Assembly (NCBI GenBank): GCA_964355955.1
Contig: CAYHFQ010000001.1
Span: forward strand, 39,419-103,418
DNA length: 64,000 nucleotides
Origin: an uncultured Gammaproteobacteria bacterium
GTDB taxonomy: Bacteria > Patescibacteriota > Patescibacteriia > UBA9934
Direction: 5' to 3'
The notes below the pieces were generated by a model. That model made no database searches. It was not told the origin of the DNA and was given only the letters and a program-made list of their open reading frames with translations. Position 1 is the stretch's first letter; every line of letters begins with the position of its first letter. The position numbers were made by a program, and so were the translations under genes. Shown here one piece after another: positions 5,097 to 57,260 of this stretch.

Positions 5097-5552
5097 TTAA
5101 AAAGGAATATCTTCTAATTTAATTTCTTCTTCGGCGGGAGGGAGTGGAGCGTCGTCCATGCTTGGCACGTTGCCGGAGCTATCATTTTTGGCGTAACCAC
5201 CACCAGCTTGGGCGCCAGTTGGACGGTCGAGCATGATGAGATTTTCGGCCACGATCTCTGTGCGGTAACGCTTGACGCCGTCTTGACCTTCCCATTCACG
5301 ACTTTGAATGCGACCGTCGACGTAGACTTTCTTGCCCTTGGTGAGGTACTGGGCACAGATTTCGGCCAAACGACCCCAGGCGACGATGTTGTGGTAGTCG
5401 GCTTGATCCTTCTTTTCGCCAGTGGCGGTAGTAAAGACACGATTTGTGGCAATACTGAAGGAAGTAACAGCCTGGCCGCCAGCGGTTTTGCGGAGTTCAG
5501 GATCACGGGTCAAGTTACCGATGAGCGTGGCTTTGTTTAAGGAGTTGGCCAT
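5097..5552 (-). CDS. ssb: Single-stranded DNA-binding protein
   Basis: OB-fold SSB sequence with an acidic C-terminal DIPF tail. Confidence 0.9.
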   Translation of the reverse strand: MANSLNKATLIGNLTRDPELRKTAGGQAVTSFSIATNRVFTTATGEKKDQADYHNIVAWGRLAEICAQYLTKGKKVYVDGRIQSREWEGQDGVKRYRTEIVAENLIMLDRPTGAQAGGGYAKNDSSGNVPSMDDAPLPPAEEEIKLEDIPF

Positions 5553-9242: not shown

Positions 9243-9776
9243 ATGATACTTACTCAGCCTAAACACTTCGAGATTAAGACTTATTGGGACGGGAGGGCGT
9301 GCGAAGATGAGAAGTTGTGGGGTACGGTCGACCTCGAAGGGACGGAAGAGGGATTAAAGATGACGGCGACGCTGCCATGGCAAGATATGCCGAAGGTACC
9401 AGAGGTTGAGGAGGGAGAGAGGGTGGCGAACTTGTGGGAGTATGACGTGGTGGAGTGTTTTTTGGTGGGTAAGGAGAAGTATCTTGAGGTCGAGCTCGGG
9501 GCGGGTGGACACTGGTTGGTACTCGACTTTACGGCACCGCGGGTGAGGGATAATGCGTATGAAGATTTCCTGCCGACGCTTGAGTTCAAGCGGAACGTAG
9601 GCGATGGACGCTGGGAGTCCACGATAATTATTCCCTGGGAGATGGTGCCCGAGGGACTGCGTACAGCGAATGCGTTTGTGATTGTGGGTGAGAATTATTT
9701 GTGTGCAACTCCCCTGCCCGGCGAGAAGGCTGATTTTCACCAGCCGGGGAAATTTGAAAAGTTAATTATTACTTAA
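9243..9776 (+). CDS. Hypothetical protein with a CBM9-like/DOMON-like domain
   Basis: Patterns [18 protein letters not shown] and [15 protein letters not shown] resemble the family-9 carbohydrate-binding-module fold. The first ATG is at 9243; the maximal ORF starts at a GTG at 9225. Confidence 0.4.
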
Positions 9777-10282
9777 ACTGAATATATCTTTTTGCCGTGT
9801 TTTTCTACGAATGAGACTGGTATTTTTGGATTATTTATATCCTTTTCACCGTCATTATACCACTTCTCTTCCCATTTCTTATAATACTCTTCTAAAGCAT
9901 CTGGGGTTAATTGAAATATGGATTTGATTTCTATTCCTTCATAAATTGCGAATATCCAATCTACTTTGCGATATTTAGTGATAATGGAAGGATTCATGTG
10001 ATGGTGAGTTGAAAACGATTGTGTTAACTTGATGTTAACTGATTTTAATTCAAACTCATATCCATTCTGATCAACGGCATCGTTACCTTCTCTGCCTTCG
10101 AGATTAGATAAACTGGTCAGCAATAATACCTGAAGGAGTTTGCCACCATTATCCTGGAAAATGTCATCAATCCCATGGCGACTTGCTAAAGCTTGATATT
10201 CTCGTATGTACGGGAATAACCTGTTCATCTCTTTAATATCTGCTGCGAAATTTATTTTCATATTTAGGTAAATAGCTCCCAC
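9773..10282 (-). CDS. Type IIP restriction endonuclease, PvuII family (predicted CAGCTG specificity)
   Basis: …[20 protein letters not shown]…GREGNDAVD…YEFELKS…STHHHMNP…DINNPKIPV… closely matches R.PvuII as recalled, including the catalytic Asp/Glu-x-Lys (NDAVD…ELK). Alternative starts lie at 10261 and 10228. It overlaps the C gene, as in the PvuII operon. Confidence 0.8.
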
Positions 10283-10482
10283 GACTCTACAGCGAGAGCC
10301 TTAGCAATTTTTTCTATATTATCGATTGACACATTCCTCTCCCCTCTTTCAATAGAACCAATGTAGGTACGATGTAAACCTGACATACTCCCCAAATCTT
10401 CCTGAGAAATATTTTTCAATAGCCTTATTTCCTTCAGCTTCTTTGAAAAAACAATCCTTAACTTTTGCGTGTTTGCTTTCAT
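10264..10482 (-). CDS. Controller (C) protein, XRE-family HTH regulator of the R-M system
   Basis: 72-aa HTH_3 protein (…[39 protein letters not shown]…). It sits directly upstream of the endonuclease gene and overlaps it. Confidence 0.8.
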
Positions 10483-11518
10483 ACGTAAATATGATAATGT
10501 TATGATGATTATGAATCTACAGACTTTAAGTAGCATCCCTTTCAATCCAGCATATACTACAAGACTAGGCCAAGCATTTTGCGCTGACTCTCTAGATATA
10601 CTAAAAGCGATGCCTGATAACAGTGTTAATTTAGTAATTACTAGTCCTCCGTTCGCTCTCTTAAGAAAAAAAGAATACGGAAATGAAAACCAAGATCAGT
10701 ATGTAGACTGGCTTGCTCAGTTTGCAAAAATTGTGCAGCGAGTTTTAACACACGATGGTAGCTTCGTAGTGGACATTGGTGGAGCCTATGAACAAGGCGT
10801 GCCAGTAAGAAGTCTTTATAATTTTAGAGTTTTGTTAAAATTTTGTGATGAAATAGGTTTTAATCTCGCCGAAGAATTTTATTGGTATAACCCATCAAAA
10901 TTGCCTAGTCCAATAGAATGGGTAAATAAGAGAAAAATAAGAGCTAAGGACTCAGTCAATACAGTTTGGTGGTTTTCAAAAACCAAATGGCCAAAGGCAG
11001 ATGTGCGAAAAGTTTTAGTACCATACAGTGACAGGATGAAACAACTTTTAAAAAACCCTGCCGCTTTCTATTCCCCCAGTAAACGCCCTTCTGGTCATGA
11101 TATAAGTAGTCGATTTGGTACTGACAATGGAGGAGCAATTCCTTCTAACTTATTACAAATATCGAATTCCGAATCCAATAGCCAATATCTGTCTTTATGT
11201 AAATTAATTGGTGAAAAGCAACATCCGGCTAGATTTCCCGTGCAATTACCAGAATTCTTTATAAAATTTTTAACTGAACCTAACGATTTTGTAGTTGATA
11301 TTTTTGCCGGATCAAATACTACTGGGCAAGCTGCGGAAAATCTCGGAAGACGCTGGTTATCAATAGATATGGATAACCACTATGTAGCTACATCGGCATT
11401 AAGATTCTTAAACAAACAAACATTAAAAAACGATGAGATTTTAGAAATCTTTAACAAAATTCTTGCAAAGGAGCAAGTGAACATATTGTCATCTTTAAAC
11501 AAAGAAACCTTACTATAA
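10469..11518 (+). CDS. Beta-class N4-cytosine/N6-adenine DNA methyltransferase, M.PvuII-like
   Basis: Motif IV SPPF (LVITSPPFAL) sits N-terminal and motif I FAGSNTTG C-terminal, the beta-class order. Divergent from C/R. Alternative internal starts at 10502-10511 are reminiscent of the two starts of M.PvuII. Confidence 0.82.
   Translation: MFAFIRKYDNVMMIMNLQTLSSIPFNPAYTTRLGQAFCADSLDILKAMPDNSVNLVITSPPFALLRKKEYGNENQDQYVDWLAQFAKIVQRVLTHDGSFVVDIGGAYEQGVPVRSLYNFRVLLKFCDEIGFNLAEEFYWYNPSKLPSPIEWVNKRKIRAKDSVNTVWWFSKTKWPKADVRKVLVPYSDRMKQLLKNPAAFYSPSKRPSGHDISSRFGTDNGGAIPSNLLQISNSESNSQYLSLCKLIGEKQHPARFPVQLPEFFIKFLTEPNDFVVDIFAGSNTTGQAAENLGRRWLSIDMDNHYVATSALRFLNKQTLKNDEILEIFNKILAKEQVNILSSLNKETLL
10507..10534 (-). 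promoter_or_regulatory. Putative C-box operator for the C/R promoter
   Basis: Minus-strand sequence ACTTAAAGTC-TGTA-GATTCATAATC lies 25-50 nt upstream of the C start. It resembles the recalled C.PvuII operator GACTnnnAGTC-TGTA-GACTnnnAGTC, and lies inside the 5' end of the divergent M gene. Confidence 0.45.
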
Positions 11519-13920: not shown

Positions 13921-14001
13921 TTCTCAGCGATGCCAACTGGCGTGCGCTGACAACAAAAGTCCCCTTTCACCGATTGGTGAGAGGGGGCTTCTTCGTTTAG
14001 T

Positions 14002-14031
14002 TCAAGCGGGGCATGGTAACCCCGCCTATTA
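14002..14031. repeat. Palindromic mini-repeat, copy A (intergenic)
   Basis: TCAAGCGGGGCATGGTAACCCCGCCTATTA. Stem GCGGGG/CCCCGC. Near-identical to copies at 16694 and 32010. Confidence 0.8.
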
Positions 14032-19300: not shown

Positions 19301-19488
19301 CTGACTGAAGCAGAACTGATTGGTACACCGTTAGCGTTTAATAAACGGCCCTGATAGTTAAGAATATTGGGGGCGGAGGCGGCGTGAACCTGGGAAAGAG
19401 TGAAACCGAAGAGGCCGGAAAATAATAAGATGGCCAGCAGTGAGCCAGCTAAGAATCGTCGCAATTGAAATGCGGCACGAGTCATCAT
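16375..19488 (-). CDS. Giant secreted surface protein (1037 aa) with a Thr/Gly/Ala-rich beta-rich region and a C-terminal Pro/Thr/Glu-rich tail
   Basis: Signal peptide (…LSQVHAAS). Low-complexity repeats. The C-terminal PVxTEP tail contains in-frame mini-repeat copy B. Confidence 0.6.
16694..16724. repeat. Palindromic mini-repeat, copy B (inside a CDS, in frame)
   Basis: TCAGAGCGGGGCATGGTAACCCCGCCTATTA. On the minus strand it encodes [12 protein letters not shown] within the 1037-aa protein. Confidence 0.8.
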
Positions 19489-25079: not shown

Positions 25080-25336
25080 ATATTCCAGCCCTGCCAGCTT
25101 TGGCCTATTTTGGGCTTGTTGCGGCGTCGACTTCTTCAACTCACGACCAAAGTGAGTCTCAGAAAGTCGACTTGCTCCGCACCCAAACTAGTCTCAAATC
25201 TGACAGTCCTGTCTGCTCTGTTCATCGAAACTAGCCTCAAATCTGAAAGTTCCGCGTACATCGTTCGTCTGTTGTCGTGCTATACTACAAGCTCGAGAAC
25301 AGGGCGAGTATAGTCATTTTTAAGCTTTGGGTCAAT

Positions 25337-30146: not shown

Positions 30147-30292
30147 TAATATACAAAAAAGTCAACTTTAATATCGCTTAGAGTGAGTGAGTTACTTCTA
30201 ACTGCGCGCCGTCAACCGTGCCATCTGACTCACCTCGTGTGACTCGGGAGCTGGCACAGGGCCGGTGCTCGTGTCGGCGTAACTCACTCACT

Positions 30293-35874: not shown

Positions 35875-36006
35875 CTGCCCGACTCGGCGACGAATTTCTG
35901 CCCCTGCTGACCTCGGTCGGTGGGGGCGTCCTCTTTTTTATCGATTAATGGCTGGTGGCTTGCTAATTTAATGGTTTTCGGTTATTATTTTCCCGCAAAC
36001 GAGCAT

Positions 36007-36082
36007 GGTGCCTATAGCACAGTGGTTAGTGCACCGGGTTGTGGTCCCGGCTACGAGGGTCCGATTCCCTCTAGGCACCCCA
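36007..36082 (+). tRNA. tRNA-His (anticodon GTG) with an encoded G-1
   Basis: Acceptor GTGCCTA/TAGGCAC with an extra 5' G pairing with discriminator C73. Anticodon stem-loop CCGGG-TTGTGGT-CCCGG. T-arm GAGGG-TCCGATT-CCCTC. CCA is encoded. Confidence 0.85.
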
Positions 36083-36089
36083 GCAGAGA

Positions 36090-36118
36090 ACCCTCCGTAA
36101 TTGGAGGGTTTTTGCTTT
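36090..36118 (+). terminator. Rho-independent terminator after tRNA-His
   Basis: GAACCCTCCgtaattGGAGGGTTTTTGC. Confidence 0.65.
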
Positions 36119-36155
36119 AGCTAGAACTTCCTCGATGATCGCAAATGTGATAGTT

Positions 36156-36941
36156 CTAGGATTTAAATGAATACGGCTGGCCCTGGTTGAACAGGGTGTT
36201 AAAGGTGGCTTTGAAGGAGTCCGCGATGCCGGGGTGAGTGATGGTGACGACCAAGTTGGTTTGCGGGAAGAGATATGCGAGGGTGGAGCCGTACATGATG
36301 GTGAGGCCTTGGAAGGGTAAGGCGGATTCGGGATAGGTGCGGACGCTAATTTGGCGCTGTTGGAGTAAGGCGAGGTTGATGGGCGAAATGAGGGTGTTGG
36401 GGATTTGGGTGGCTTCAGCAGTGAGGATGAGTTTGGTGGCGATTTTACGGGCGATGATTTTAGAGAAAAAATTGTTTGTCTCCGTGTTGCTTAAGAGAGT
36501 CAGCTCGCTGTTTAAAGCTGTGGCGCCTTCAATGACGTAGAAAGTTGAACCTTCCGGGAGGGAAGAGATTTCATCGTAAACTTTGAAGTAGCCGGCGCGA
36601 GATTCGCTGACTTGGACGCGGGGCGCTTCAACTTCAATTTTTTGGAGGACTTCCAACTGCGGCACGAGGCTTTTAAAGTCCGTGGTTAGGCGGTCAAAGC
36701 GGGCAGCGAGTGTGGCTGGCGGCGTGGCGGTGTAAAGGAGGGTGCGGCCGTGGTTAGATTCGACGACGAGTTCTTTGGCGAGGAGCTTTTTGAGGTGAAA
36801 ATGCGTAGCGGTGCGGTTTTTTTTGATTTTGCTAGCAATATCAGAGACGCCAGCTGTGCCCAGTTTGAGTAAAGCGAGGTAAATGTCGGCTTCGTCAGCG
36901 GTGACGGAGAAGTAACTTAGGAGTTCTTTGGGATTGGTCAT
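36156..36941 (-). CDS. TrmB-family transcriptional regulator (copy 1)
   Basis: N-terminal wHTH (…SVTADEADIYLALLKLGTAGVSDIASKIKKNRTATHFHLKKLLAKELV…) plus a TrmB-like C-terminal domain. The first ATG is at 36941; the maximal ORF starts at a TTG at 36977. Confidence 0.65.
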   Translation of the reverse strand: MTNPKELLSYFSVTADEADIYLALLKLGTAGVSDIASKIKKNRTATHFHLKKLLAKELVVESNHGRTLLYTATPPATLAARFDRLTTDFKSLVPQLEVLQKIEVEAPRVQVSESRAGYFKVYDEISSLPEGSTFYVIEGATALNSELTLLSNTETNNFFSKIIARKIATKLILTAEATQIPNTLISPINLALLQQRQISVRTYPESALPFQGLTIMYGSTLAYLFPQTNLVVTITHPGIADSFKATFNTLFNQGQPYSFKS

Positions 36942-37067
36942 ATGGGTTATATTAGACTGAAACTGGCATTTTGTCAACTATTTTAATCATCAAATTATAC
37001 CTTATTTATTGAATAATCTAGTTATTTATAAACTTATGCACATTATTGTTGACGAAAGAGGTAAAAA

Positions 37068-37850
37068 ATGGTATTGTATGTAGTCGAGCAGGGAATGGCC
37101 CGGTTCGACAAACAACCACAAGACACGGAGACTACCATGCGAATCCTCATCATCGACGACACCCCCGCCAACCTCAAGGCCGCCGAACAGACCCTCGCTG
37201 GCCACCAGCTGACGTTGGTTGGTAGCTACGACGATGCATACAAGCTGCTCGAGGAGCCTTCTGCCGACTACAAGGAAGTGGAGGCAGAGTTGAAGAGACT
37301 CGGCTACAACCGGCGTCCTGACCTCAGCCAGGAAGAAAAAAACGCCTTCCAAAAGGAGCAGGCGCGGCTTGAGAAGGAGCTGCGACCGGCTGGGAACTTC
37401 GATGTCGTGTTGTGCGACATGATGATGCCAGCTGGTAAGCGAATCCAGGTGTCGAATGACCTGGTCGGGCAGTTGATGCCGGTCGGCTTTGCCTTGGTAC
37501 TCGACGCCGTGTTGCATGGCGCCAAATACGTCGGCATGCTGACCGACGGCGACCACCACAACCACCCTGCGGTCGCCTGGATTGATCGCCTGTCCAGCTA
37601 TCACGGATGGAGTGATGATCCGTACAAGTGCCCGGCACGCTTCATCGTGAACGGAGCGACGGTCGGGTACTTCCGCGGTCAAAATACCTTCCTGGTGGAG
37701 GGAGAAACGTGCGAAAAATGCAAAGGCACTCGGATTGATGACAACAGTGAGTTTGCAGGGCCGCCAGTTTGCTACGCCTGCACCGCCGATGGCAAGGTTC
37801 GTGCGAAGGATTGGGGGAAGGTACTCAAGCGGCTGCTCGGCGAAGGGTAG
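37068..37850 (+). CDS. Atypical CheY-like receiver-domain protein with a C-terminal Cys4 zinc-ribbon-like region
   Basis: MRILIIDDTPANLKAAEQ… (DD pair), DVVLCDMMMP (phospho-acceptor Asp context), and a C-terminal CEKCKG…CYAC. GC-rich. RBS AAGAGG lies before 37068. There is no output domain of known type. Confidence 0.55.
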   Translation: MVLYVVEQGMARFDKQPQDTETTMRILIIDDTPANLKAAEQTLAGHQLTLVGSYDDAYKLLEEPSADYKEVEAELKRLGYNRRPDLSQEEKNAFQKEQARLEKELRPAGNFDVVLCDMMMPAGKRIQVSNDLVGQLMPVGFALVLDAVLHGAKYVGMLTDGDHHNHPAVAWIDRLSSYHGWSDDPYKCPARFIVNGATVGYFRGQNTFLVEGETCEKCKGTRIDDNSEFAGPPVCYACTADGKVRAKDWGKVLKRLLGEG

Positions 37851-37977
37851 AGGCAAACAATACATTAACAACTTTCCTTGGCGTGAGTAGCACTCGCTCG
37901 CGCCCAGCATCGAGACGCCGAGCTGTTCGGCGGATCGACACTGATAACAATGCAACCAACGAACTACGGAGTCAGCC

Positions 37978-39486
37978 ATGACCATGAACGTCGCCTTTGT
38001 TTCCCCTCAGCGCCAGGTCGATGCCATTCACGAGCCACCCCGCGGTGGGGTGCAGATCGGGCCGGCCTTGATGGCCTCGCTGCTCAATGGATATTACCTC
38101 GACGAGTCCGTCCGCAACGGCGGATGGCAGCGGCGTGAGCTCTGCGTTCGCACGCTGTGGCCAGGTGAGCGTGGCATCCACGAGACGCCGCTCAACCGCA
38201 CGTGGGGGGAAGTGCATGAGGAGAAGATGTACGACTTCCACAAGCTGTCGTCGACTGACTTCATCAGGAAGTACTCGGCGTTCAGGGAAGATGGCCGCGT
38301 GCAGCGCATCATCGCGCGGATCGGAATTCCGGAAGAGGAAACGATCCAGCACTTGCGCGACCTCCGCGTCGAGGCGGTCGGCATCCCCTTGGCGGCGTCG
38401 GCCAACTACCTGGCGGCCACGTCGCTCGGCAGGCGGATCAAGCGCGAGCTCGGCATCCGAGTGGTGATGGGTGGCCAGCACATCACGGCGGATCCTGAAC
38501 AGTTCGTCCGCGACAATCCGTGGGTCGACCACGTCGCGCAGGGCGACGCCATCACGACCATCGAGGACATGATGGCCGGCCGGGCAACGAGCAAGATTGT
38601 GAAGGGAGGATTCCAGAAGATGGAGGAATACCCAATCATGAACTGCGAGTTGTTGGCCGATGCTGGCTACTCGACTCCACCGACGCACAACTACCCCTCG
38701 GGGTTGAAGTCGATTGACTGGATGGCCAGTCGTGGGTGCTACCGTCATTGCGAATTCTGCTTTGCCGGGCGTCCGGAGCAGAAAGTCACGCAGTCTGGTT
38801 GGGACAAGATCCGACAGCAGCTCGACCACTTTGTGGCCTATGGCTACCAGGAGATTGTGCTGCAAGACGACGCGATTCTCTCTCGCCCGAAGGAGTTCTT
38901 CATTCCTTTGCTCGGGGAGATGAAGCAGCGCGGACTCTCGTGGTCAGACAACGGTGGCGTGGAGTTCGAGAGCCTGTCGGATGAGGTCACCGCGGCCATC
39001 ATGGCGTACAACGATGGCGGGTCGGGCGAGTGTTTCTCGCTGTACGTGCCGTTCAATCCGCGGCAGGGAAATGAGAAGCAGAGCTCGGCAGGGTCGATGA
39101 CCACGAAGTACGAGAACAGCAAGGAGAACCTGAAAAAGCTGCGCTCGGCGGGAGTGTACGTGTTGACGAGCATCATGGTCGGTACACCAGACCAGACACA
39201 CGAGACGTTCGCGGAAGACATGGCTGCTTCCAGGAAGTTGATCGTGGATGGGTACCTCGACTCGGCGCTGCCGTTGTCCGCCACCATGCTGCCCGGCACC
39301 AGGTGGTTCGAACGCAACGGCCACAACATCGTCCACCAGGACGACTGGGCAGGCTACAACCTGTTCAGCACCCACCACAACACCAACGACATGACTGCTC
39401 GTAAGATCGAGGAGGGCATGGTCCGGTGGGTGAAGGAGTCAGGCGACGTGCAGACGATCGAGGCCTGGCAGTGTGCCTTTGCGTAA
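37978..39486 (+). CDS. B12-binding-domain radical SAM enzyme (class B-like)
   Basis: Radical SAM cluster motif CYRHCEFC (CxxxCxxC) preceded by SRG. An N-terminal Rossmann-like B12-binding-type region (…VVMGGQHITADPEQF…). RBS GGAG is present. GC-rich. Confidence 0.75.
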   Translation: MTMNVAFVSPQRQVDAIHEPPRGGVQIGPALMASLLNGYYLDESVRNGGWQRRELCVRTLWPGERGIHETPLNRTWGEVHEEKMYDFHKLSSTDFIRKYSAFREDGRVQRIIARIGIPEEETIQHLRDLRVEAVGIPLAASANYLAATSLGRRIKRELGIRVVMGGQHITADPEQFVRDNPWVDHVAQGDAITTIEDMMAGRATSKIVKGGFQKMEEYPIMNCELLADAGYSTPPTHNYPSGLKSIDWMASRGCYRHCEFCFAGRPEQKVTQSGWDKIRQQLDHFVAYGYQEIVLQDDAILSRPKEFFIPLLGEMKQRGLSWSDNGGVEFESLSDEVTAAIMAYNDGGSGECFSLYVPFNPRQGNEKQSSAGSMTTKYENSKENLKKLRSAGVYVLTSIMVGTPDQTHETFAEDMAASRKLIVDGYLDSALPLSATMLPGTRWFERNGHNIVHQDDWAGYNLFSTHHNTNDMTARKIEEGMVRWVKESGDVQTIEAWQCAFA

Positions 39487-39518
39487 ACAATTCAACCATT
39501 AGGAGGATTAAACTATCG

Positions 39519-39565
39519 AGTAAAACTCACCGCTCACTGAGCCGCTGCTCAGTGAGCGGCTCTTT
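39519..39565 (+). terminator. Rho-independent terminator after the radical SAM gene
   Basis: CCGCTCACTGAGCcgctGCTCAGTGAGCGG (13-bp stem) followed by CTCTTTGTTTT. Confidence 0.7.
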
Positions 39566-39573
39566 GTTTTGAT

Positions 39574-39617
39574 CAATGTTTACAGACAAGGGACGAAGTT
39601 CGACGTCGTCCTGGGAG
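39574..39617. repeat. Direct repeat DR1 with an internal hairpin (GGACGA…TCGTCC), left flank of the kinase cassette
   Basis: CAATGTTTACAGACAAGGGACGAAGTTCGACGTCGTCCTGGGAG. About 40 of 44 nt are identical to DR2 at 40638-40680. Confidence 0.7.
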
Positions 39618-39667
39618 TTGGCATTGCTAACAAAAATTGTCATTTTGATATACTGTATTGGTTATCT

Positions 39668-40630
39668 ATGGATGCAATACATCAGAAAAATATCGACGCC
39701 CTGACTGAGCTCATCCGATCTGGAGAAATGGGGGAGTCGCTGACCTCATCAACTCCGAATATATCATTTTTTAGAACGGGAGGCGGCAATTATTTATACC
39801 TTATCGAACTTGGTACCGCAAAATATCTAGCGCGGGTTAATTATTATTTTTTGAAGAATGAGTGGGGTGCAAAGGAACACGAGTTCCAAACCCTAAAAAT
39901 GATAGAAGGGCTCGGTATTGCACCTCGCGCTCATTATCTTGATGCAGGTAACGGTTTGTTTGGTCAGCAATTCATTATCGTTGATTTTATCGAGGGAAAT
40001 CCTGTGAACAAAATTGGCGATTCCCACGTCATTAATCTTGCGTCGATATTAAGAACATTACACACTAACGTCCCATTTAAAAAATCAGGTAATACGTTTC
40101 CGCCAAATGATAGCCTGCCATATACCTGTGATATTTTTGACGAATTTGCTGATGGCGAAGACAAACAAATTGAGAAGTACAGAAATCTCGAAGGTATTGA
40201 AGGTATTATCGAACCATACACGCGCCTTCTAAAGGCGTTGGGAGACTGGTTTCACTCCTTAACCTGCTTTAATGATTGCCGCACGTTTTGCCTGTGCCAC
40301 GCGGATTTGAAAAAGGAAAATATACTTGAAACTCCGGATGACAATATTTTCCTCATCGATTGGGAATATGCGGGTTCAGATATACCTGAAACGGACATTG
40401 GTCGGCTATTTTCCGGATGTGACTTCACTGAAAAACAGCAGGAATTATTCTTTTCATACTATTTCACTAGTTCGCCAGATGAAAAAACTCTGGAACGCAT
40501 CATGAGTGTTAAGATGGTTCTCGATTTCTTCCGGATTATTGAGGATTATATTCTGCTCAAGAGGAAAAGCTGGGATGCAGAAGCTATGCTTGGTGAACTT
40601 CTGGCGTTCGAGGATAATTTCACTAGTTGA
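39668..40630 (+). CDS. Choline/ethanolamine-kinase-like phosphotransferase (APH/ChoK family, LicA-like)
   Basis: Brenner motif CHADLKKENIL and LIDWEYAGSDIPETDIGRLF, as in LicA-type choline kinases and APH enzymes. AT-rich compared with its flanks. Confidence 0.7.
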   Translation: MDAIHQKNIDALTELIRSGEMGESLTSSTPNISFFRTGGGNYLYLIELGTAKYLARVNYYFLKNEWGAKEHEFQTLKMIEGLGIAPRAHYLDAGNGLFGQQFIIVDFIEGNPVNKIGDSHVINLASILRTLHTNVPFKKSGNTFPPNDSLPYTCDIFDEFADGEDKQIEKYRNLEGIEGIIEPYTRLLKALGDWFHSLTCFNDCRTFCLCHADLKKENILETPDDNIFLIDWEYAGSDIPETDIGRLFSGCDFTEKQQELFFSYYFTSSPDEKTLERIMSVKMVLDFFRIIEDYILLKRKSWDAEAMLGELLAFEDNFTS

Positions 40631-40637
40631 GATGGGC

Positions 40638-40680
40638 CAATGTTTGCAGGCAAGGGACGAAGTCCGACGTCGTCCTGAGG
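40638..40680. repeat. Direct repeat DR2, right flank of the kinase cassette
   Basis: CAATGTTTGCAGGCAAGGGACGAAGTCCGACGTCGTCCTGAGG. Same hairpin core as DR1, followed by TTTTATAC. It may also act as a bidirectional terminator. Confidence 0.7.
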
Positions 40681-40682
40681 TT

Positions 40683-41459
40683 TTATACACTCTGTGTCCA
40701 CAGCGCGGCGAAGATGCTGCGGAGCATGGCCACGATGTATTCGTCTTCCACGAGGACGGCCAGCGGGGCTTTGGGCTGCCAGATGATGACCTTGTTGGCG
40801 TAGAGCATGAAGCCGGTGACGAAGGGGAGGGTGCCTTGGAAGATACGCGTGGTGCGCATTTGGAGTTTGTCGTTTTGTTCGAGTTTGGCAGCGTCGGCGC
40901 CAGGAGTGAGGAGGGAATTCATGTGAATGTTTTTGCTGGTACGGATACGGATCCATTCGAGTTCGGTTTCCCAGGAAATGAGGCCGATGAAGGCGTCGGC
41001 AGAACCGAAGAAGTCGATTTTGTCTTTGGCTTCGTCCAATACTTTGAAAAAGATTTTATTCCACTGATCTTCACCTTCGTAAACTTTTATTTTAGTGGGA
41101 GTTTCGCCCTGGTGGTAGAGCGCGAGTAAATCTGGCATGGAGCCGACGAGGGTTTGATCAAGGCTCTCCATGGCGGCACGTTTTTTACGTAATTGCTCCA
41201 AGACGACGGTTGGCGGCTCCACCACAAAGGTGCGGGACTGCTTTTTACGCTGTGAAAACTTGGTTAAACCATGCTTTTCTAGCCCAGCAATGACTTTGTA
41301 GACGTTGGGCCGTGGCATGCTCAAATGCTCCGCTAACGAGACGATGGTGACGGAACCGAGTGTCAAGGAAGTGAGGTAGAGGTTAGCTTCGCTTTCGGTT
41401 AAACCGAGTTCTTTGAGGGAAGTGTAGAGATTTTGTTTCACCTCGGTATTAGAAAGCAT
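40683..41459 (-). CDS. TrmB-family transcriptional regulator (copy 2)
   Basis: N-terminal wHTH (…LTESEANLYLTSLTLGSVTIVSLAEHLSMPRPNVYKVIAGLEKHGL…) plus a TrmB-like C-terminal domain. Confidence 0.65.
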   Translation of the reverse strand: MLSNTEVKQNLYTSLKELGLTESEANLYLTSLTLGSVTIVSLAEHLSMPRPNVYKVIAGLEKHGLTKFSQRKKQSRTFVVEPPTVVLEQLRKKRAAMESLDQTLVGSMPDLLALYHQGETPTKIKVYEGEDQWNKIFFKVLDEAKDKIDFFGSADAFIGLISWETELEWIRIRTSKNIHMNSLLTPGADAAKLEQNDKLQMRTTRIFQGTLPFVTGFMLYANKVIIWQPKAPLAVLVEDEYIVAMLRSIFAALWTQSV

Positions 41460-41599
41460 AGCGATTTGCTAGTTATTTGTGTTTATAGCGTATATTTTTA
41501 TTATACATTGTTAGTAAATAGAGCGCAAATATATTGACTTTAGTGTATATTTCTGGTATTCTATTTGGTCAGTGACGTTGCTAATAAGAACCAATAGCT

Positions 41600-43051
41600 A
41601 TGAAGAAGTTCAAGAAAGTTGTGGTACTCGATACAGTCATCTTCTACCCCGAGCATCGTGCGCTGTTGAATAAACTGGCGGAGGAGGTGTTGGAGTTTCC
41701 ATCGAGTTTACCGGAGAGGTTAGAGCAGCAGTTTAGTGAACAGCCAGAGTTGTTCGCTGAGACTAAGTGTTATACCGAGCTCGGGGCGAATAACACGCCG
41801 CTGCAACTTTTGATGAATAGGGTTGAGGGCGCTGAGGTGATTATTAGTTGTTGGACGAATATTCCTGATGAGATTTTAAGATTGAACCCGCAATTGAAGC
41901 TGGTTATTTTTTGGACGCATGAGAAGGAGCATAGGATTAATGTCGAGTTGGCGCGAGAGTTGGGGATTGAGGTTAAGAATATTCCGGACTACGGCACCGA
42001 AGCTGTAGCTGAAGTTGTGTTTGCCGGTTTGTGGCAATTGCTGATGAGAAATTATGCGAGTGATGGCTCGGCCGATAAAAAAGATGGGCTAAAGAACTCG
42101 ATTGTGAATGATGTGTTTAGTCGCATTAGACTGCTGCCGGAGAACGAGAAGAATACGCGACTAGGGAAGTTTAGCCATCACTTCCATAAATTAGGACAAG
42201 TGAAGTTCGACTTCGATAAGAAGAATCTGGAGCAACTTATTCCGGAGCGGATGATCGAACATAAACAGATTGGCCTGATGAATATTGAAAAAATCGATGA
42301 GACCGTGAAGGTACTAAGAACGTTCGGCGTGATCGTCGAAGAGAAAATGATCAACGATTTTACGCTGGCGTCGACCTATAAGTTTTTAAGCGAGAACGAA
42401 ATTGTTTATCGCGATAAACGATTAGTGGCGAAGAGCGAAGTCGATAAAATTGAGCAGATGTGGCCAGGGAAGTTGGTTGACGTTAATTCTCTTGTTAAAT
42501 CAGATTACGAGTTCGCCGATAAAGTTTTTGGGCTAGTGGGCCTAGGAAGAATTGGCGAGCAGGTGGCGAGGATAGCGAAGGGCCTGGGGTTCGAGGTTAT
42601 CTACTATTCGAAGCGGCGTAATGAAGTAATCGAAGAGAGGCTCGGTATTAAATATAATGAGATTGATGAACTAGCAAGAGTGAGTGATGTCATTTCACTT
42701 CATGTGCCAGCGCATAAGGCTGAGAATGTGATCGATAAAAAATTCATCGATGAGATGAAGGCTGGCGCGCTGTTCATTAATACGGCGGATGGGAATGCGG
42801 TTGACCAAGTGGCTCTCACCGAACGGATGATGAAGCGAGAGATATTCGCTTATCTAGATGTTTATCCCGGCTTGCCGAGGAAAGATATTTTGGGGCTGCC
42901 GATGATAGATAAGAAAGATTGGAAACTGCATAAGGCGCTAGCAAATAATGTGCTGGCGTACAGGGCAGGTTGGAAGACGCAGGAGTCGATTAGAGTCAAA
43001 ACTTATAAACTGTTAGGCGAGATGACGAGTTATTTAATGAACGATAAATAA
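41600..43051 (+). CDS. D-isomer-specific 2-hydroxyacid dehydrogenase-family protein with a ~150-aa insertion
   Basis: NAD-binding GLVGLGRIGEQVA (GxGxxG), SLHVP and INTADG motifs of the 2-Hacid_dh_C family. An N-terminal catalytic lobe and an extra insert (…RNYASDGSADKKDG…). Confidence 0.7.
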   Translation: MKKFKKVVVLDTVIFYPEHRALLNKLAEEVLEFPSSLPERLEQQFSEQPELFAETKCYTELGANNTPLQLLMNRVEGAEVIISCWTNIPDEILRLNPQLKLVIFWTHEKEHRINVELARELGIEVKNIPDYGTEAVAEVVFAGLWQLLMRNYASDGSADKKDGLKNSIVNDVFSRIRLLPENEKNTRLGKFSHHFHKLGQVKFDFDKKNLEQLIPERMIEHKQIGLMNIEKIDETVKVLRTFGVIVEEKMINDFTLASTYKFLSENEIVYRDKRLVAKSEVDKIEQMWPGKLVDVNSLVKSDYEFADKVFGLVGLGRIGEQVARIAKGLGFEVIYYSKRRNEVIEERLGIKYNEIDELARVSDVISLHVPAHKAENVIDKKFIDEMKAGALFINTADGNAVDQVALTERMMKREIFAYLDVYPGLPRKDILGLPMIDKKDWKLHKALANNVLAYRAGWKTQESIRVKTYKLLGEMTSYLMNDK

Positions 43052-43056
43052 ATTCT

Positions 43057-44595
43057 ATGATTAATGAACAAGAAAAGACGACCCGCACGAAGTTCAACTT
43101 CCTCAAGAAATATTACGATGAAACGTGGGATGAGGCGGCGCATACGCTGCATGTTGGTTTATTTAAGAAGGAAACGGATTCCCTCTCCACAGCCTACAAA
43201 CAGGCGACTGAACATCTCTTAGCCAATATTGAAACAATTGCGCCGATAAGCAAGAGCTCGATCGTGCTCGATGTTGGTTGTGGTACGGGAAAGACGTTAA
43301 TTGAGTTGTGCGCGAAGTTTGGCTGCAGCGGCGTCGGCGTCGACTTAAGCGATGAGCAGATTAAGGATGCTAAGATTTATGTGCGCGAGTTGAATGCTGA
43401 ACGAATGGCCAAAAAGTTGCCGAAGCTACTGGTTAAGTTTGTTCGGGCAAGTGCCAGCGAACTGAGCCAAGTGTTTGCCAAGGATGAACAGTTTAGCCAT
43501 GTGATCAGCCAGGACGCGATCATGTTGGTGGCGGACAAGCAGGCGTTGTACGAGAACGTGTACCGTTTGTTAGCACCAGGTGGCGTGTTCGCCGTGGCCG
43601 ACTTTTTGGCGCAGGCGGCGCAGAGTGAATTGACCACGACGGAGCATGACTTGGTGTACAAGATGGTCAATTGGAATGAGGGTTTCTCGTTTAAGGTGTA
43701 CCAGCAGATCTTGCAGGCGACTGGCTTGAACGTGGTTAAGGCTGAGCAACGTGACCAAGATATGATTTGGACGTATGCCAAGCTGGCTAAAAAGATGAAG
43801 GCGCACGAGAATAAGGCGGACGGAACTTACACCGAGCTGAAAAACCGTTACGAGGGAATTGTTAGTGCAATTGAGAACGGCAAGATGGGTTGGGGCTTTT
43901 TCTTCGCCCAGAAGCCGGTGAGAAAAACTGCTTTGATTGCGGGAACCAAAACAAAGTCTATTGGTCGCTTTGTAGCTGTAGCTTTGCACAAGTTGGGCTA
44001 TGAGATTTATTTGTATGGCCGGAGTGCGAAGACTGTCGATAAGGCTGGTTGGCACGAACGAGCTTGTGATATCAGCAACGAAAAGAGTATCAGTAAGTTA
44101 TTAAACGAGGTGCAAAGTTTGGACTTAGTGCTAATGTTTGCTGATGCCGAGGGCGGACACGGAACCATCGAAGAGCTGACTAAGGAGGGAGTTGAGAGCT
44201 GTTTTGGCGCGAAGTTAGTAGGCAGTGTCTTACTGACGAAGGCGATTGTGCAGAAGTTCAAGAACCGCCAGACGCCGATTCAGATGATTTGGGGTGCGGG
44301 TGGCGTCAGCGATAAGCCGAAAGACTTAATAATTTATGGGCTGATTAATAATGGCTTGGCGGCGTTCGTCAAAGAACTTAATCGTCACTACCATAATATA
44401 GTCGAGGCGTTCTACTTGCCGTTTACCGTCATCTCACCGTCTACGCTCGGTGATGCTTACATTAAACAAGTTGGACCACAACTACAAAAAATGGCTAAGC
44501 ATCCAAGCACAATCGTCGACACGATCATGGGTGTGATTGGGAAGCAGGTAATGCAGGGGGGGGGAATGATAGTGATAGAAAGTAAGGTAATTTAG
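43057..44595 (+). CDS. Fusion protein: class I SAM-dependent methyltransferase (CFA-synthase-like) plus a C-terminal SDR-like Rossmann domain
   Basis: Motif I VLDVGCGTGKTLIEL. The C-terminal half carries IAGTKTKSIGRFVA (TGxxxGxG-like) with a YxxxK-type context. The fusion architecture is unusual. Confidence 0.6.
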   Translation: MINEQEKTTRTKFNFLKKYYDETWDEAAHTLHVGLFKKETDSLSTAYKQATEHLLANIETIAPISKSSIVLDVGCGTGKTLIELCAKFGCSGVGVDLSDEQIKDAKIYVRELNAERMAKKLPKLLVKFVRASASELSQVFAKDEQFSHVISQDAIMLVADKQALYENVYRLLAPGGVFAVADFLAQAAQSELTTTEHDLVYKMVNWNEGFSFKVYQQILQATGLNVVKAEQRDQDMIWTYAKLAKKMKAHENKADGTYTELKNRYEGIVSAIENGKMGWGFFFAQKPVRKTALIAGTKTKSIGRFVAVALHKLGYEIYLYGRSAKTVDKAGWHERACDISNEKSISKLLNEVQSLDLVLMFADAEGGHGTIEELTKEGVESCFGAKLVGSVLLTKAIVQKFKNRQTPIQMIWGAGGVSDKPKDLIIYGLINNGLAAFVKELNRHYHNIVEAFYLPFTVISPSTLGDAYIKQVGPQLQKMAKHPSTIVDTIMGVIGKQVMQGGGMIVIESKVI

Positions 44596-44640
44596 AAGTG
44601 AATTGCAACAGAAAACCCTCCGTGGTGGAGGGTTTTTGGT

Positions 44641-45873
44641 TTATAAGCGAGTGATGTCGCGGGGATAAAAGAGGTTCAGCGTCCATTCGAAGATAATGCG
44701 TAGGCGCTTTTTGTGACTGGCGAATTTGAAGAGATAGATGGTGCGCCAGAGCCACCAGGTGAGACGACCGCTCAAGTTGATGCGACCGATGGTGCCAGCG
44801 GCGAACCACTGGCCGAGGGAAACGAAGCTGCCGCGGGAGTGATAAACGAAAGTCTGGAGAGGGCGACCAGCGAGGAGAAGAACGATGTTGTTAGCCACAG
44901 CGCGACCTTGAGCGACGGCGACTTGAGCCAGCATGGGTAGGCCAGCAGCCGCGTCGCCCAGGATAAAGATGTTTTTGTCGAGCTCAGCTCGATTGTTGAT
45001 ATGCGACCAAAGCTCAGCTTTGGTTGGCTCGCTGCCAGAATAACTGACGAGCTTAGGCAGTGACGCCTTGACGCCAGCGGTCCAAATGGTGAGGCCGGAG
45101 GGGATGCGCCAGCCGTCGTTCAGGTTGACGCCAGTCGCGTCGACCTCGCCGACTTGAATGCCGAGACGTAACTCGACATCGAGTTTGCGAAGACGACGTT
45201 CGGCGGCCTTGCGGGTGGGAAGAGAGAACTGGGCGAGAAGTTCTGGGCCAGCGCTAACGAGCGTGACGGAAACTTCGTTATGTAAAATGCAGCTGGTTTT
45301 GTCGCAGAAGTAACGATGAGCAATATGGAAAGCGAATTCCGCCAGCTCGGCAGCGAGTTCAACACCGGTGGCACCAGCACCGACCACGACGAAGGAGAGG
45401 AGATTTTTGCGTTCGGCTGAAGTGGTGACGAGTGAGGCGGTTTCGAAGGCGTCGATGATACGAGCGCGGATGGCGCTGGCGTCGGCTAAAGTTTTGAGAG
45501 GGAGGGAGAATTCTTGGGCACCTGGAGTGTCGAAGTAATTGGTGCTGGCGCCGGTTGAGAGAACTAAAATGTCGTAAGGGATGGAGTGATGGCCGAGGAA
45601 GACGGTCTTTTTACTGGCGTCGACCTTAGTCACTTCACCTTGGATGACGCTGATGCCGGTGTGGGCGAAAATTTCACGCAATGGCTCTGCCACGCTGCCG
45701 GCACTGAGGCCGCCGGTGGCAACTTCGTGCAGGAGGGGAGTAAAGAGAAAATAGTTGGTGGTGTTGATGAGAGTGACGGAGATTTTGCCCTGCTTGACCT
45801 GGCCGCGTAGACCCCAGGCGACTTCCATGCCGCCAAACCCGCCGCCGACGATGACAATGTGTTTCTTTTTCAT
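44641..45873 (-). CDS. ndh: Type II NADH dehydrogenase (NDH-2)
   Basis: Two dinucleotide-binding motifs (IVIVGGGFGG and FVVVGAGATGVELA) and overall NDH-2 similarity. Confidence 0.85.
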   Translation of the reverse strand: MKKKHIVIVGGGFGGMEVAWGLRGQVKQGKISVTLINTTNYFLFTPLLHEVATGGLSAGSVAEPLREIFAHTGISVIQGEVTKVDASKKTVFLGHHSIPYDILVLSTGASTNYFDTPGAQEFSLPLKTLADASAIRARIIDAFETASLVTTSAERKNLLSFVVVGAGATGVELAAELAEFAFHIAHRYFCDKTSCILHNEVSVTLVSAGPELLAQFSLPTRKAAERRLRKLDVELRLGIQVGEVDATGVNLNDGWRIPSGLTIWTAGVKASLPKLVSYSGSEPTKAELWSHINNRAELDKNIFILGDAAAGLPMLAQVAVAQGRAVANNIVLLLAGRPLQTFVYHSRGSFVSLGQWFAAGTIGRINLSGRLTWWLWRTIYLFKFASHKKRLRIIFEWTLNLFYPRDITRL

Positions 45874-45915
45874 GTGCCGGGATTATACACCACCGGAAAT
45901 GATGAGGAAATGAAG

Positions 45916-46836
45916 TTAGGTAGCTTCTGGTTTATCATGGAATTTGGTGTAGACGCGTTTGAGTTCTTTGTCGGTGATATGGGTGTAGACCTGAGTGGTG
46001 ACGATGCTCGAGTGGCCCAGGAGGGATTGGACGGAGCGGATGTCGGCGCCGTTACGGAGGAGATCCGTGGCAAAAGTGTGACGGAGGGTGTGCGGGGTGA
46101 CGCGTTTGGTGATTCCGGCGTTACGGGCAAAGCCGTCGATGACGCGCTGGACAGAACGGGGGGTGAGGGCGGCGACACCACCTTTTTTAGCGCGGTCGTG
46201 GCGGACAAACATGAAGGGAGCAACATCTTGGCGGACGTCTAAGTACATTTTGAGACATTGTTTGGCGGCGGGTGAGAGGAAAACCACGCGGTGCTTGCTG
46301 CCTTTGCCTTTGATGGTAAATTCGTCGAGCTTGAGGTTAACTTGTTCGATGAGGAGATTGGAAAGTTCGGAGACGCGAAGGCCAGAGGAGAAGAGGAGTT
46401 CCAAAATGGCGCGATCGCGGAGGCCGACGAGTGAGGTGTCGCGGGCGGCGAGGAGGAGCATGCGCTTCAGCTCTTCCGCTTCGAGGAAGCTGACGTGGCG
46501 GCCTTCCTGTTTGGCGAGTTCGATCTTTTCCGGCGAGAGACTTTTAATGTCGCGCTTGGCTAAGAATTTTAAGAATGAGCGCAGGGCGATGAGGTGATAG
46601 TTCTGCGTGGTTTTTTGCAGCGTGGCTTCTTCGCGGCCGGCCAGGTCGCGGTTAAGAAAGAGGCGGAATTTGCGGACTAGTTCTTGCGTAATATCACTGG
46701 GTTCGCTAATAGCAGCCCAGTCGAGAAAGCGGCGCAAGTAAAAACAATAATTTTTGACGGTGAGCAAAGAACGCCCGCGTTCGATTTCTAAGTATTCTAA
46801 AAATTGTTGGAGATATTTGTCGATTAGTTTGGCCAT
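45916..46836 (-). CDS. Tyrosine site-specific recombinase XerC/XerD
   Basis: Catalytic R…HxxR…Y box (…LRHTFATDLLRNGADIRSVQSLLGHSSIVTTQVYTHI…). An N-terminal SAM-like core-binding domain. Confidence 0.85.
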   Translation of the reverse strand: MAKLIDKYLQQFLEYLEIERGRSLLTVKNYCFYLRRFLDWAAISEPSDITQELVRKFRLFLNRDLAGREEATLQKTTQNYHLIALRSFLKFLAKRDIKSLSPEKIELAKQEGRHVSFLEAEELKRMLLLAARDTSLVGLRDRAILELLFSSGLRVSELSNLLIEQVNLKLDEFTIKGKGSKHRVVFLSPAAKQCLKMYLDVRQDVAPFMFVRHDRAKKGGVAALTPRSVQRVIDGFARNAGITKRVTPHTLRHTFATDLLRNGADIRSVQSLLGHSSIVTTQVYTHITDKELKRVYTKFHDKPEAT

Positions 46837-46919
46837 ACCAATGTATTATACGACACAGTTGGCAGGGAGGATAGTATTCCTTGTCACATTTCCAAAAATG
46901 TGTTATTATTTCAATATCA

Positions 46920-54534: not shown

Positions 54535-54900
54535 ATGATTGTCTTTGTAGCAAGTTCAAGAAAATATTATGACCGGGTAAAGATGCTTAAAGCAGAGCTC
54601 GATAAGTTTGACGTTAAGGGTTATTATCCGTACTTTGATTTACCAGATATTGAGGGTGATGACGAAAGGAAGAAGCAGGTGACTCTGCAGCATTTTCCTG
54701 AGATTGATCAGGTTGATACTTTGTATATTGTTGCTCCGGCTGGATATGTTGGTTATTCGGTGACGATTGAGACGGCCTATGCTTATGCTAAAGGCAAACG
54801 GATTATTAGTTCAGAGCCGATAACTGAATTTGCGGTGAGAGCGCTGGTGTCGGAGGTGATGACGCCTGATGAGTTCGTAGCTAGCGCGGGACGACGTTGA
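54535..54900 (+). CDS. Hypothetical protein, possibly nucleoside 2-deoxyribosyltransferase-like Rossmann fold
   Basis: 121 aa. …LYIVAPAGYVGYSVTIETAYAYAKGKRII… pattern. Weak call. Confidence 0.3.
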   Translation: MIVFVASSRKYYDRVKMLKAELDKFDVKGYYPYFDLPDIEGDDERKKQVTLQHFPEIDQVDTLYIVAPAGYVGYSVTIETAYAYAKGKRIISSEPITEFAVRALVSEVMTPDEFVASAGRR

Positions 54901-54925
54901 ACGTCGTCCATGACCTATATTTATT

Positions 54926-55375: not shown

Positions 55376-55528
55376 AAACTTCCCCAGTCGGTCTATTTTC
55401 AACTCACATCTGCACAAACTTTCTCACCGTAGCACTAACTACGCCTCGAAAGCTTTGTTTGCTGTTCATTGAAACTAGCCTCAACTGGAAAAGTTTTCTT
55501 ATAATTCTCTCCCCGTAATTAATACAAT

Positions 55529-57058: not shown

Positions 57059-57260
57059 AGTTGTCGCTCGCAACCGCCCTGCTTCTCGTTTGGCCATCGT
57101 CGGGTCCTGCCGACTGCGGACCCCATTGGGTGCTCACTAGCGTTGCGCGCCCAATAGGGGACCCCCCTCCGTGTCACCCGACTAGAGGAAGTTGTATACG
57201 AGGCCTTCTCTCGAAGCAGTGCGGCTGCTCGCTCCTACAAGGCTCAGGCTGCTAAAAAGT

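Follow-up and report, generated by a model that had tools for sequence, protein, structure and literature searches.

REP-like palindromes bracket a strain-specific kinase gene cassette in a genome of the Candidatus Uhrbacteria lineage

The 64-kb stretch of DNA analyzed here (referred to below as the window; contig CAYHFQ010000001.1) carries a small, intact AT-rich gene, predicted to encode a choline-kinase-like protein, between two short direct repeats, DR1 and DR2. Judged by alignment with the corresponding loci of related genomes, one repeat together with the kinase gene is a strain-specific insertion of ~1 kb at a polymorphic chromosomal slot, i.e., a real gene cassette and not one of the integron type. 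By their sequence, DR1 and DR2 are members of an interspersed family of palindromes resembling the repetitive extragenic palindromes (REPs), which in sister genomes is linked to a Y1 transposase of the REP-associated tyrosine transposase (RAYT) type.

Allelic states of the slot and insertion breakpoints

The slot is delimited by a gene for a B12-binding radical S-adenosylmethionine (SAM) protein and a gene for a TrmB-family regulator, TrmB-2, and its counterparts in relatives were found via members of the TrmB-2 cluster. In locus L065 the slot is empty: the T-tail of the radical-SAM terminator meets the TrmB-2 stop codon, with neither kinase nor repeat between them, and the flanks abut or overlap by 3 nt, compared with a distance of 1112 nt in the window. 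In L060, a UBA11707-like locus whose flanks are 83–87% identical to those of the window, the slot is occupied by a PemK/MazF toxin, its antitoxin and a full REP doublet. In L061–L064 the tRNA-His gene adjoins TrmB-2, and the entire block from another TrmB-family gene, TrmB-1, to the radical-SAM gene is gone. The kinase gene is missing from L065, L060 and L061. The search for a kinase-less slot that had been proposed in the original prediction thus yielded two such alleles, one joining the flanks without a repeat (L065) and one with a REP doublet (L060).

The breakpoints between the window and L060 fall at 39573|39574 and 40637|40638, that is, exactly where DR1 and DR2 begin (blastn, coordinates checked by eye: L060 11518–13270 corresponds to window 39573–37866, and L060 7272–10822 to window 44164–40638). 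The window-specific segment between them holds the DR1 unit and the kinase gene with its promoter-like site, plus 7 nt, while the L060-specific DNA comprises 695 nt with the toxin-antitoxin pair and the other hairpin of the doublet. DR2 is the resident repeat, being the orthologue of the arm and second hairpin of the L060 doublet; moreover, the tail CTGAG(G/A) is common to DR2 and L060 alone, and DR1 has CTGGG, the usual tail of the family. Both cassettes sit between T(T/G)GAT and CAATG, at the same or nearly the same nucleotide, and the left junction in L060 also holds the heptamer ATGTTTA, which may be the remnant of an arm. With an empty slot in one relative, a different cassette in another and breakpoints on the first bases of the repeats, the cassette-like insertion originally suggested from the window alone is well borne out.

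Structure of DR1 and DR2

A repeat search recovered both repeats where they had been predicted: DR1 (39574–39613) and DR2 (40638–40677) are 93% identical (37/40) and lie 1064 bp apart from start to start. A 27-nt core has only these two sites in the window, with 0 matches in 100 dinucleotide-preserving shuffles. The GGACGA/TCGTCC stem noticed earlier is indeed part of one hairpin common to both copies, but folding gave a longer stem of 9 bp, GGACGAAGT/ACGTCGTCC, which includes a single A.G mismatch and closes on a loop of 3 nt. DR1 is built of a 17-nt 5′ arm CAATGTTTACAGACAAG (39574–39590), the hairpin GGACGAAGT-TCG-ACGTCGTCC (39591–39611) and the tail TGGGAG; DR2 consists of the arm CAATGTTTGCAGGCAAG, the hairpin GGACGAAGT-CCG-ACGTCGTCC (40655–40675) and the tail TGAGG. 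Both units are intergenic and lie on the + strand with their arms in the same orientation, and both are cut off at one and the same base, the C of CAATG, ~4 nt from the place of the other hairpin in doublets. They are therefore described here as half-doublets (a spacer arm plus one hairpin), not doublets. A longer CAATG...CATTG hairpin at DR1 has no counterpart in DR2 and was treated as chance. Among the aligned hairpins there is one clear compensatory pair (G-C to T-A in L060), too few to claim covariation, and an Rfam search of the locus at E ≤ 1 gave no match.

In all, ~94 kb of the 1.085-Mb source genome was read (the window, L066 and an extension in L095). Besides DR1 and DR2 it contains no other full unit; the proposed search for further copies returned only a perfect hairpin without the arm, within the window (54889–54909), and a degenerate hairpin at L066:2539. 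An open reading frame appears to stop at the loop TGA of the former, as traced by eye. The identical kinase protein with the same neighbors is found on five independent contigs, one of them 1.085 Mb long; because these contigs agree and the two copies differ at three positions, an assembly artifact is unlikely.

DR2 lies 8 nt past the kinase stop codon and 3 nt past that of TrmB-2, hence within the 3′ untranslated regions of the two convergent genes, and from this position it probably acts as the 3′ stem-loop of the kinase mRNA. Palindromes of this kind could also be operators for the TrmB-family regulators, since a dimeric helix-turn-helix (HTH) protein would need palindromic sites, or ordinary terminators kept by selection, and a short T-run does follow 5 nt past the DR2 stem. 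Such a regulatory origin of the duplicates seems very improbable to us. Other genomes carry this sequence both at unrelated loci and flanking a transposase gene, DR2 is downstream of both genes and not in a promoter, and a terminator scan calls neither DR1 nor DR2, the true terminator being the one that adjoins DR1. Furthermore, the folding energies of the two units are no better than those of shuffled sequences (z −1.0 and −0.35), although this is expected for such short units. The duplicated terminator considered in the original prediction can be set aside for a similar reason, as the true terminator is a strong, separate and unduplicated hairpin, outside the repeat unit, present in single copy and kept in both L060 and L065 (three-way comparison of the junctions). 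The wider possibility that the repeat is a common terminator motif holds only in so far as it is clade-wide; the family is tied to mobility rather than being a plain terminator.

Dispersed REP-type repeats, whose presence varies among relatives, might have landed independently on either side of an old resident kinase gene, in which case there would be no cassette at all; in more distant relatives the kinase does occur in the same chromosomal neighborhood (tRNA-His/PolA). This chance adjacency is improbable in view of the L060 breakpoints, which coincide with the repeat period to the nucleotide, and of the kinase-less state of L065, L060 and L061. In addition, both copies are cut at the same base and keep the 17-nt arm in full, unlike the other single hairpins of the source genome, and the only two full units in the ~94 kb occupy neighboring spacers in the same orientation, for which a rough estimate of the chance expectation is ~1%.

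The REP-like family and its transposase

Species-representative genomes (the source genome is not among them) were scanned with a hairpin pattern tolerant of loop variation. The scan returned 45 loci, 38 of which were single matches in GC-rich unrelated genomes and were judged to be chance; several matches each were found in two genomes alone, the metagenome-assembled genome (MAG) DeMMO3_42 and Candidatus Uhrbacteria UBA11707. Of two metagenome scans, the first gave no match and the second eight, all in GC-rich coding DNA and judged to be chance, as were the matches in a scan of viral contigs, all of them without the hairpin.

The conserved unit is a 17-nt 5′ arm, CAATGTTTRCAGRCAAG, followed by the 9-bp hairpin. 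An identical hairpin with the CAATGTTT(A/G)CAGG arm is present in DeMMO3_42 (L016, L027, L035), in UBA11707 (L037, L041) and in L060. In L016, L027, L037 and L060 the units form doublets with a common layout, i.e., a hairpin, a spacer of ~21 nt with CAATGTTT(A/G)CAGG and the same hairpin inverted; the L016 doublet pairs a hairpin identical to the one in DR2 with the reverse complement of the DR1 hairpin. The presence of REPs also differs between relatives at the spacer between Xer and NDH2 and at the 3′ end of PolA. At this 3′ end, the window has a long inverted repeat (GAGTGAGTGAGTTAC ... GTAACTCACTCACTC, 30198–30276) where DeMMO3_42 (L027) has a REP doublet; the inverted repeat is found again at L066 15087–15165, L066 being probably from the same genome as the window.

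L037 and L016 each carry an AT-rich gene enclosed by two doublets. It codes for 215/216 aa, with 75% identity between the two genomes, the 215-aa transposase being HCC83531.1. Its product matches Pfam Y1_Tnp (IS200-like) with E-values of 7e-5 to 1.5e-4, and its sole NCBIfam match is to the REP-associated tyrosine transposase (E 7.5e-9), at 35.6 bits against a cut-off of 80. All 16 aligned homologues keep the HUH histidines and the catalytic tyrosine, and a profile of these RAYT homologues weakly finds the ISDra2 TnpA (2xm3, E 0.036) and the Escherichia coli TnpA-REP (4er8, E 0.46). The pentanucleotide TTGAT, the target of ISDra2, ends the left flank of DR1 and of the L060 copy at the Xer site, two or three sites only, and CTGAT stands 18 nt before the hairpin at 54889.

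In UBA11707 and DeMMO3_42 the REP-RAYT-REP block lies between a methyltransferase/183-aa gene and YchF. In the window the same position is filled by a restriction-modification pair (Table 1). The restriction-modification module appears, from synteny, to have replaced the transposase block, the cognate RAYT being missing from this site. A RAYT paralogue of 227 aa, P0114, 50% identical to the UBA11707 enzyme, appears to belong to the source genome.

Proposed integration of the cassette

Overall, it seems rather probable that a piece made up of a REP and the kinase gene joined the chromosome at a resident REP, the weight being about evenly split between an enzymatic and a recombinational branch. 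An intermediate carrying one REP unit and the kinase would join the 5′ edge of the resident REP, DR2. By the first route, single-strand cleavage of the HUH/Y1 type would occur at successive arm edges and the REP-to-REP segment would be pasted in at the same site; by the second, a circular intermediate would recombine, through its REP, with the resident one in a single crossover. Both routes would lead to REP-cargo-REP in direct orientation, and the entry point of the toxin-antitoxin cassette in L060 would be the same, or almost the same, nucleotide. A reading of the repeats as target-site duplications was considered and rejected.

The same anatomy could result from homologous recombination of the RecA type only, with the repeats serving as ~40 bp of passive homology and no transposase involved: either a REP-flanked segment, looped out at another place or in a different strain, would re-integrate at the resident REP by a single crossover, or the whole allele would be swapped in from a different strain via the flanking genes. 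The insert is indeed exactly one repeat period with junctions that cannot be placed within the repeat, as a Campbell-type crossover gives; the source genome is without the cognate RAYT; and the flanks, 83–87% identical to relatives, are similar enough for allelic exchange. On the other hand, 40 bp is near the lower limit for efficient RecA recombination, the entry of two different cassettes at the same or nearly the same place at the 5′ edge of a REP arm looks site-specific, and sister genomes show the family linked to a Y1 transposase gene. Recombination by RecA alone is therefore a possible but clearly less favored account.

Several observations weigh against integration of a REP-kinase piece at a resident REP as set out above. 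The mechanism is deduced from the anatomy of the locus, and the direction of the event (insertion here versus deletion in L065) from parsimony and not phylogeny. In the window the units occur singly instead of as doublets, they lack the GTAG tag that is classical for RAYT-associated REPs, and the count of full units covers only the ~94 kb read of the 1.085-Mb genome. The cognate RAYT was absent from the window in a tblastn search, and no RAYT homologue at ≥75% identity was found on the 1.085-Mb contig. On either side of the paralogue P0114 there is a perfect palindrome of 36 nt, TGGTCTACATTCAATGTATACATTGAATGTAGACCA, unrelated to the DR unit; this palindrome occurs at L066/L067 9853–9888, 10686–10721 and 12949–12982, the third copy being 3′ of the next gene (S8 peptidase), and is absent from the window. 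The GGACGA-type units of this genome are thus probably orphans, which weakens the case for RAYT-driven movement at present, though not in the past. Finally, the nucleotide identity of the kinase gene to that of L002 (73%) is barely above that of housekeeping genes (66–70%), so that it gives no sign of a recent horizontal transfer of the kinase.

A lagging-strand argument for Y1 transposition was dropped since the skew pattern gives no replication direction: the GC skew is positive on the + strand across the whole window (1–64000) and continues so beyond rnpA-dnaA-dnaN (L095 11280–20852). The rnpA-dnaA-dnaN cluster lies ~1–5 kb to the right of the window end, and dnaA marks no switch of the skew.

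The cargo kinase and its location in relatives

The placement of the product in the APH/choline-kinase family, made in the original prediction, is upheld by matches to both Pfam families (Table 1) and by the catalytic motifs HADLKKEN and IDWEY (of the HxDxxxxN and D-x-E types), which are kept. The best solved structure is the choline kinase 4r77 (E 3e-12), presumably LicA of Streptococcus pneumoniae. The matches of the window’s kinase to curated NCBIfam families are all below threshold, with APH(9)-Ia at 19 bits against a cut-off of 680. By sequence, the kinase is thus nearest to the LicA-type choline kinases and not to the resistance APHs, none of which it fits, and the antibiotic-resistance function once envisaged for it finds no support in these comparisons. 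Among 99 homologues, those with a source name come from Patescibacteria lineages or from JGI entries called ‘thiamine kinase-like enzyme’, and the protein can be regarded, on sequence grounds, as a member of a small-molecule kinase family widespread in Patescibacteria. A NUDIX gene adjoins the kinase homologue in two relatives.

The kinase gene has a GC content of 0.412 and a GC content at third codon positions (GC3) of 0.41. The radical-SAM gene has a GC of 0.608 and a GC3 of 0.82, TrmB-2 a GC of 0.508, and the housekeeping genes a GC3 of 0.60–0.66. The earlier picture of an AT-rich gene between GC-rich neighbors consequently applies to the left flank, whereas the right flank is average. The low GC3 of the kinase points to a foreign origin or one in the pan-genome. 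At 37068–39486, the 260-aa gene and the radical-SAM gene, with GC3 values of 0.72 and 0.82 versus ~0.63 for housekeeping genes, are composition outliers as strong as the kinase in the opposite direction.

Upstream of the gene, a promoter-like site was recognized by a consensus scan. Its second-hexamer region, TTTTGATATACT, resembles TTTTGGGATATACT upstream of the L003 kinase, and nucleotide homology around the kinase gene starts at window position 39635 in L002, 39665 in L004 and 39627 in L006 (blastn).

The closest homologue of the kinase (76% aa identity, L002/L003) is encoded directly 3′ of tRNA-His and convergent with the orthologue of TrmB-1, not TrmB-2; the window’s TrmB-1 is 60% identical in amino acids to this TrmB-family gene 3′ of the L002/L003 kinase (BLASTP). 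A tRNA-His gene is immediately 5′ of the kinase in L069 too, and in L004 a partial copy of tRNA-His lies just upstream of the kinase homologue. In the window, in comparison, tRNA-His is followed at once by TrmB-1, and the kinase comes 3.5 kb further on, so that it must have moved locally or been re-acquired. No flanking repeats were found around the kinase homologues in L002/L003, L004, L006, L068 and L069; the kinase is therefore not generally flanked by repeats. Relatives with a repeat-less kinase, which had been named as evidence that would speak against the cassette, do exist and carry it elsewhere, after tRNA-His; since the position is a different one, they point to relocation and are no evidence against mobility. 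A blastn search of the cassette against plasmids and phages gave no match.

In L004, the full tRNA-His is at 3881–3955 and a 48-nt copy of its 3′ half at 5353–5400, ~1.4 kb downstream, a pattern that looks like a small island integrated into tRNA-His.

Comparison with known mobile systems

REP and REPIN (paired REP) populations with their RAYTs are known from Enterobacteria, Pseudomonas and Stenotrophomonas (PMC2817692, PMC3116915, PMC3733652, PMC5581495). The family described here resembles them in its short, GC-rich, dispersed extragenic palindromes with variable presence between relatives, in the inverted doublets with a conserved spacer seen in sister genomes, in singlets that look like remnants of doublets and in an IS200-like HUH/Y1 gene bracketed by repeats, the ‘REPtron’ layout, in UBA11707 (L037) and DeMMO3_42 (L016). 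It differs in its host, which belongs to the Patescibacteria (candidate phyla radiation, CPR), and in a copy number that appears low. No GTAG (PMC3733652) stands beside the DR hairpins, whose stem has CGTC/GACG, and the transposase scores far below the NCBIfam RAYT cut-off. Moreover, a cargo gene lies between the copies in the window, and the source genome lacks the cognate RAYT.

Elements of the IS200/IS605 group (IS608, ISDra2; PMC6006769) likewise carry subterminal hairpins that are alike and equally oriented at their two ends, lack conventional inverted terminal repeats and have an enzyme of the Y1/HUH family. Their left end is located ~17–19 nt 5′ of the hairpin foot, and the ~17 nt here between the presumed cut and the hairpin foot resemble the left end of IS608. 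However, there is no tnpA or tnpB inside the unit, only the kinase between the repeats, and the right hairpin is already present in a kinase-less relative, so this is not a simple two-ended element. It is also known that insertion sequences prefer REPs as targets, as with ISPpu9 inserted into REPs (PMC8450116), and that duplications can be joined at them. In that case, as here, foreign DNA enters at a REP and rearrangements are REP-bounded, but the DNA inserted in the window encodes no transposase itself and comes with a REP copy or duplicates one.

The resemblance to integron cassettes that had been noted, with DR1 and DR2 as attC-type sites recombined by an integron integrase, lies in a single compositionally foreign gene next to similar imperfect palindromes, in alternative cassettes at one slot and in a tyrosine recombinase gene 5 kb away. 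That recombinase (45916–46836) is Xer-like: it scores 240, 229 and 228 bits as XerC, XerA and XerD, versus 131 bits in two stretches for the integron-integrase model TIGR02249, the cut-off of which is 265, and it is syntenic beside S15/PNPase in relatives with different cassettes. There is no IntI, and the repeats share neither R′/R″ cores nor a GTTRRRY/RYYYAAC motif (GTTGGCA after DR1 and GTTTTAT after DR2 do not fit). Their stem is a short, near-perfect one of 9 bp, not that of a long bulged attC, and the palindromes are linked to a HUH transposase. With a promoter-like site of its own in the cassette and no array, an integron origin is extremely improbable.

Genomic context and other elements of the window

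The radical-SAM and TrmB-2 proteins share 90% clusters with HCC83511.1 and HCC83508.1 of Candidatus Uhrbacteria, respectively. Since, in addition, the named homologues of the kinase are all from Patescibacteria, the window is assigned by sequence to a Candidatus Uhrbacteria (Patescibacteria) lineage near UBA11707. Both TrmB-family genes code for HTH transcriptional regulators (PF01978), and the tRNA methyltransferase suggested by the name ‘TrmB’ in the original prediction has to be corrected accordingly. The coordinates of the features are given in Table 1.

Table 1. Features of the 64-kb window that bear on the kinase cassette, in order of position.
Feature	Position	Strand	Basis
PvuII-type restriction endonuclease + N4/N6 DNA methylase, GC ~35%	9773..11518		Pfam (PF09225 E 1e-64); blastn synteny
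tRNA-His(GTG)	36008..36082	+	ARAGORN
TrmB-family regulator 1 (TrmB-1)	36156..36977	-	Pfam PF01978; BLASTP
B12-binding radical SAM gene, left edge of variable slot	37978..39486	+	Pfam
Intrinsic terminator of radical-SAM gene; 13-14 bp stem, bidirectional, then T-tail	39530..39569 (hairpin 39530-39559)		Terminator scan and fold
DR1, REP-like unit inside window-specific insert	39574..39617	+	Repeat search, fold, L060 breakpoint
Window-specific segment relative to L060, 1064 bp (one repeat period)	39574..40637	+	blastn
Promoter-like site of kinase: CTAACA, 16 nt spacer, TG-n-TATACT	39627..39654	+	Consensus scan only
Cargo kinase, 320 aa, predicted choline-kinase/APH fold	39668..40630	+	Pfam Choline_kinase E 2.4e-12, APH E 3.2e-12
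DR2, resident REP-like unit	40638..40680	+	Repeat search; L060 alignment runs through DR2
TrmB-family regulator 2 (TrmB-2), right edge of variable slot	40683..41459	-	Pfam
Third hairpin, GGACGACGT-TGA-ACGTCGTCC, without CAATGTTT arm	54889..54909	+	Pattern match; identical copy in UBA11707 (L041)

Compared with L060, L061, L065 and L002, the region 36000–46900 is a plasticity zone extending from polA/tRNA-His to the Xer-like recombinase. It is composed of repeated modules of a TrmB-family regulator with one or more divergent enzyme genes (radical SAM, or 2-hydroxyacid dehydrogenase plus methyltransferase/short-chain dehydrogenase), the content of which differs in each relative examined. In L060 an IS3-type transposase is inserted in this zone, and the methyltransferase gene has 378 versus 512 aa.

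An interspersed element of ~110 nt (TTTGGCCTATTTTGGGCTTG ... AAACTAGTCTCAAATCTGACAGTC) adjoins tRNA genes and has a partial tandem copy. Its sites are window 25099–25265 and 55462–55495, L061 1338–1477, L066 18649–18760 and L060 ~11470–11500; the toxin-antitoxin cassette of L060 starts with its first 30 nt. Between convergent genes at 57097–57190 (− strand) there is a GC-rich element of ~90 nt, 81–83% conserved in the distant CPR loci L035 and L068, which forms a long hairpin with three compensatory pairs among the three sequences; Rfam gave no match to it even at E ≤ 1. This could be a structured RNA that has escaped annotation, perhaps one of divergent sequence similar to that of the signal recognition particle (SRP). 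A further hairpin, GCGGGG-N8-CCCCGC followed by CTATTA, has loose copies (67–76%) at 13986–14031, 16679–16724 and 31995–32040; at least one copy appears to lie inside the polA frame, and part of this family may be chance. Degenerate 6/12/18-nt tandem repeats (GGNNCTGGAGTTGG-like) at 21217–21393 lie on the opposite strand inside an 843-aa open reading frame (19485–22016) and correspond to a low-complexity repeat region of the protein.

Biological implications

REP/RAYT systems, REP-bounded rearrangements and REP-targeted insertions are already known. A full-text literature search gave no paper pairing RAYT or REPIN with Patescibacteria, and neither a cargo gene between REP units of the same orientation nor an empty/toxin-antitoxin/kinase allele series at one slot was found described. 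The locus has no resistance or clinical meaning, the kinase being an uncharacterized LicA-like enzyme. In most accounts, REP/RAYT systems appear as self-contained populations of repeats in Proteobacteria, and it is not settled how REPs spread or whether they mobilize other DNA. The locus offers a REP-like family with a Y1 transposase in the reduced genomes of Patescibacteria, and a natural allele series at one slot, with breakpoints on the repeat edge to the nucleotide. It raises the specific hypothesis that the 5′ edge of the REP arm is the site of cleavage and entry and that REP-to-REP segments carry cargo.

A more far-reaching idea, which we put forward as a speculation and consider rather unlikely, is that the REP/Y1 system is a gene-capture platform of the CPR, in which REPs would be entry points and a HUH enzyme would shuttle single-stranded circles of ‘REP + one gene’. 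The candidate cargo would be the kinase, the toxin-antitoxin pair and perhaps the restriction-modification module. If true, such a platform would be a functional analogue of integron cassettes based on HUH chemistry and not on a tyrosine recombinase. At the scale of this locus, accessory genes are seen to be shuffled in CPR genomes that are poor in classical mobile elements.

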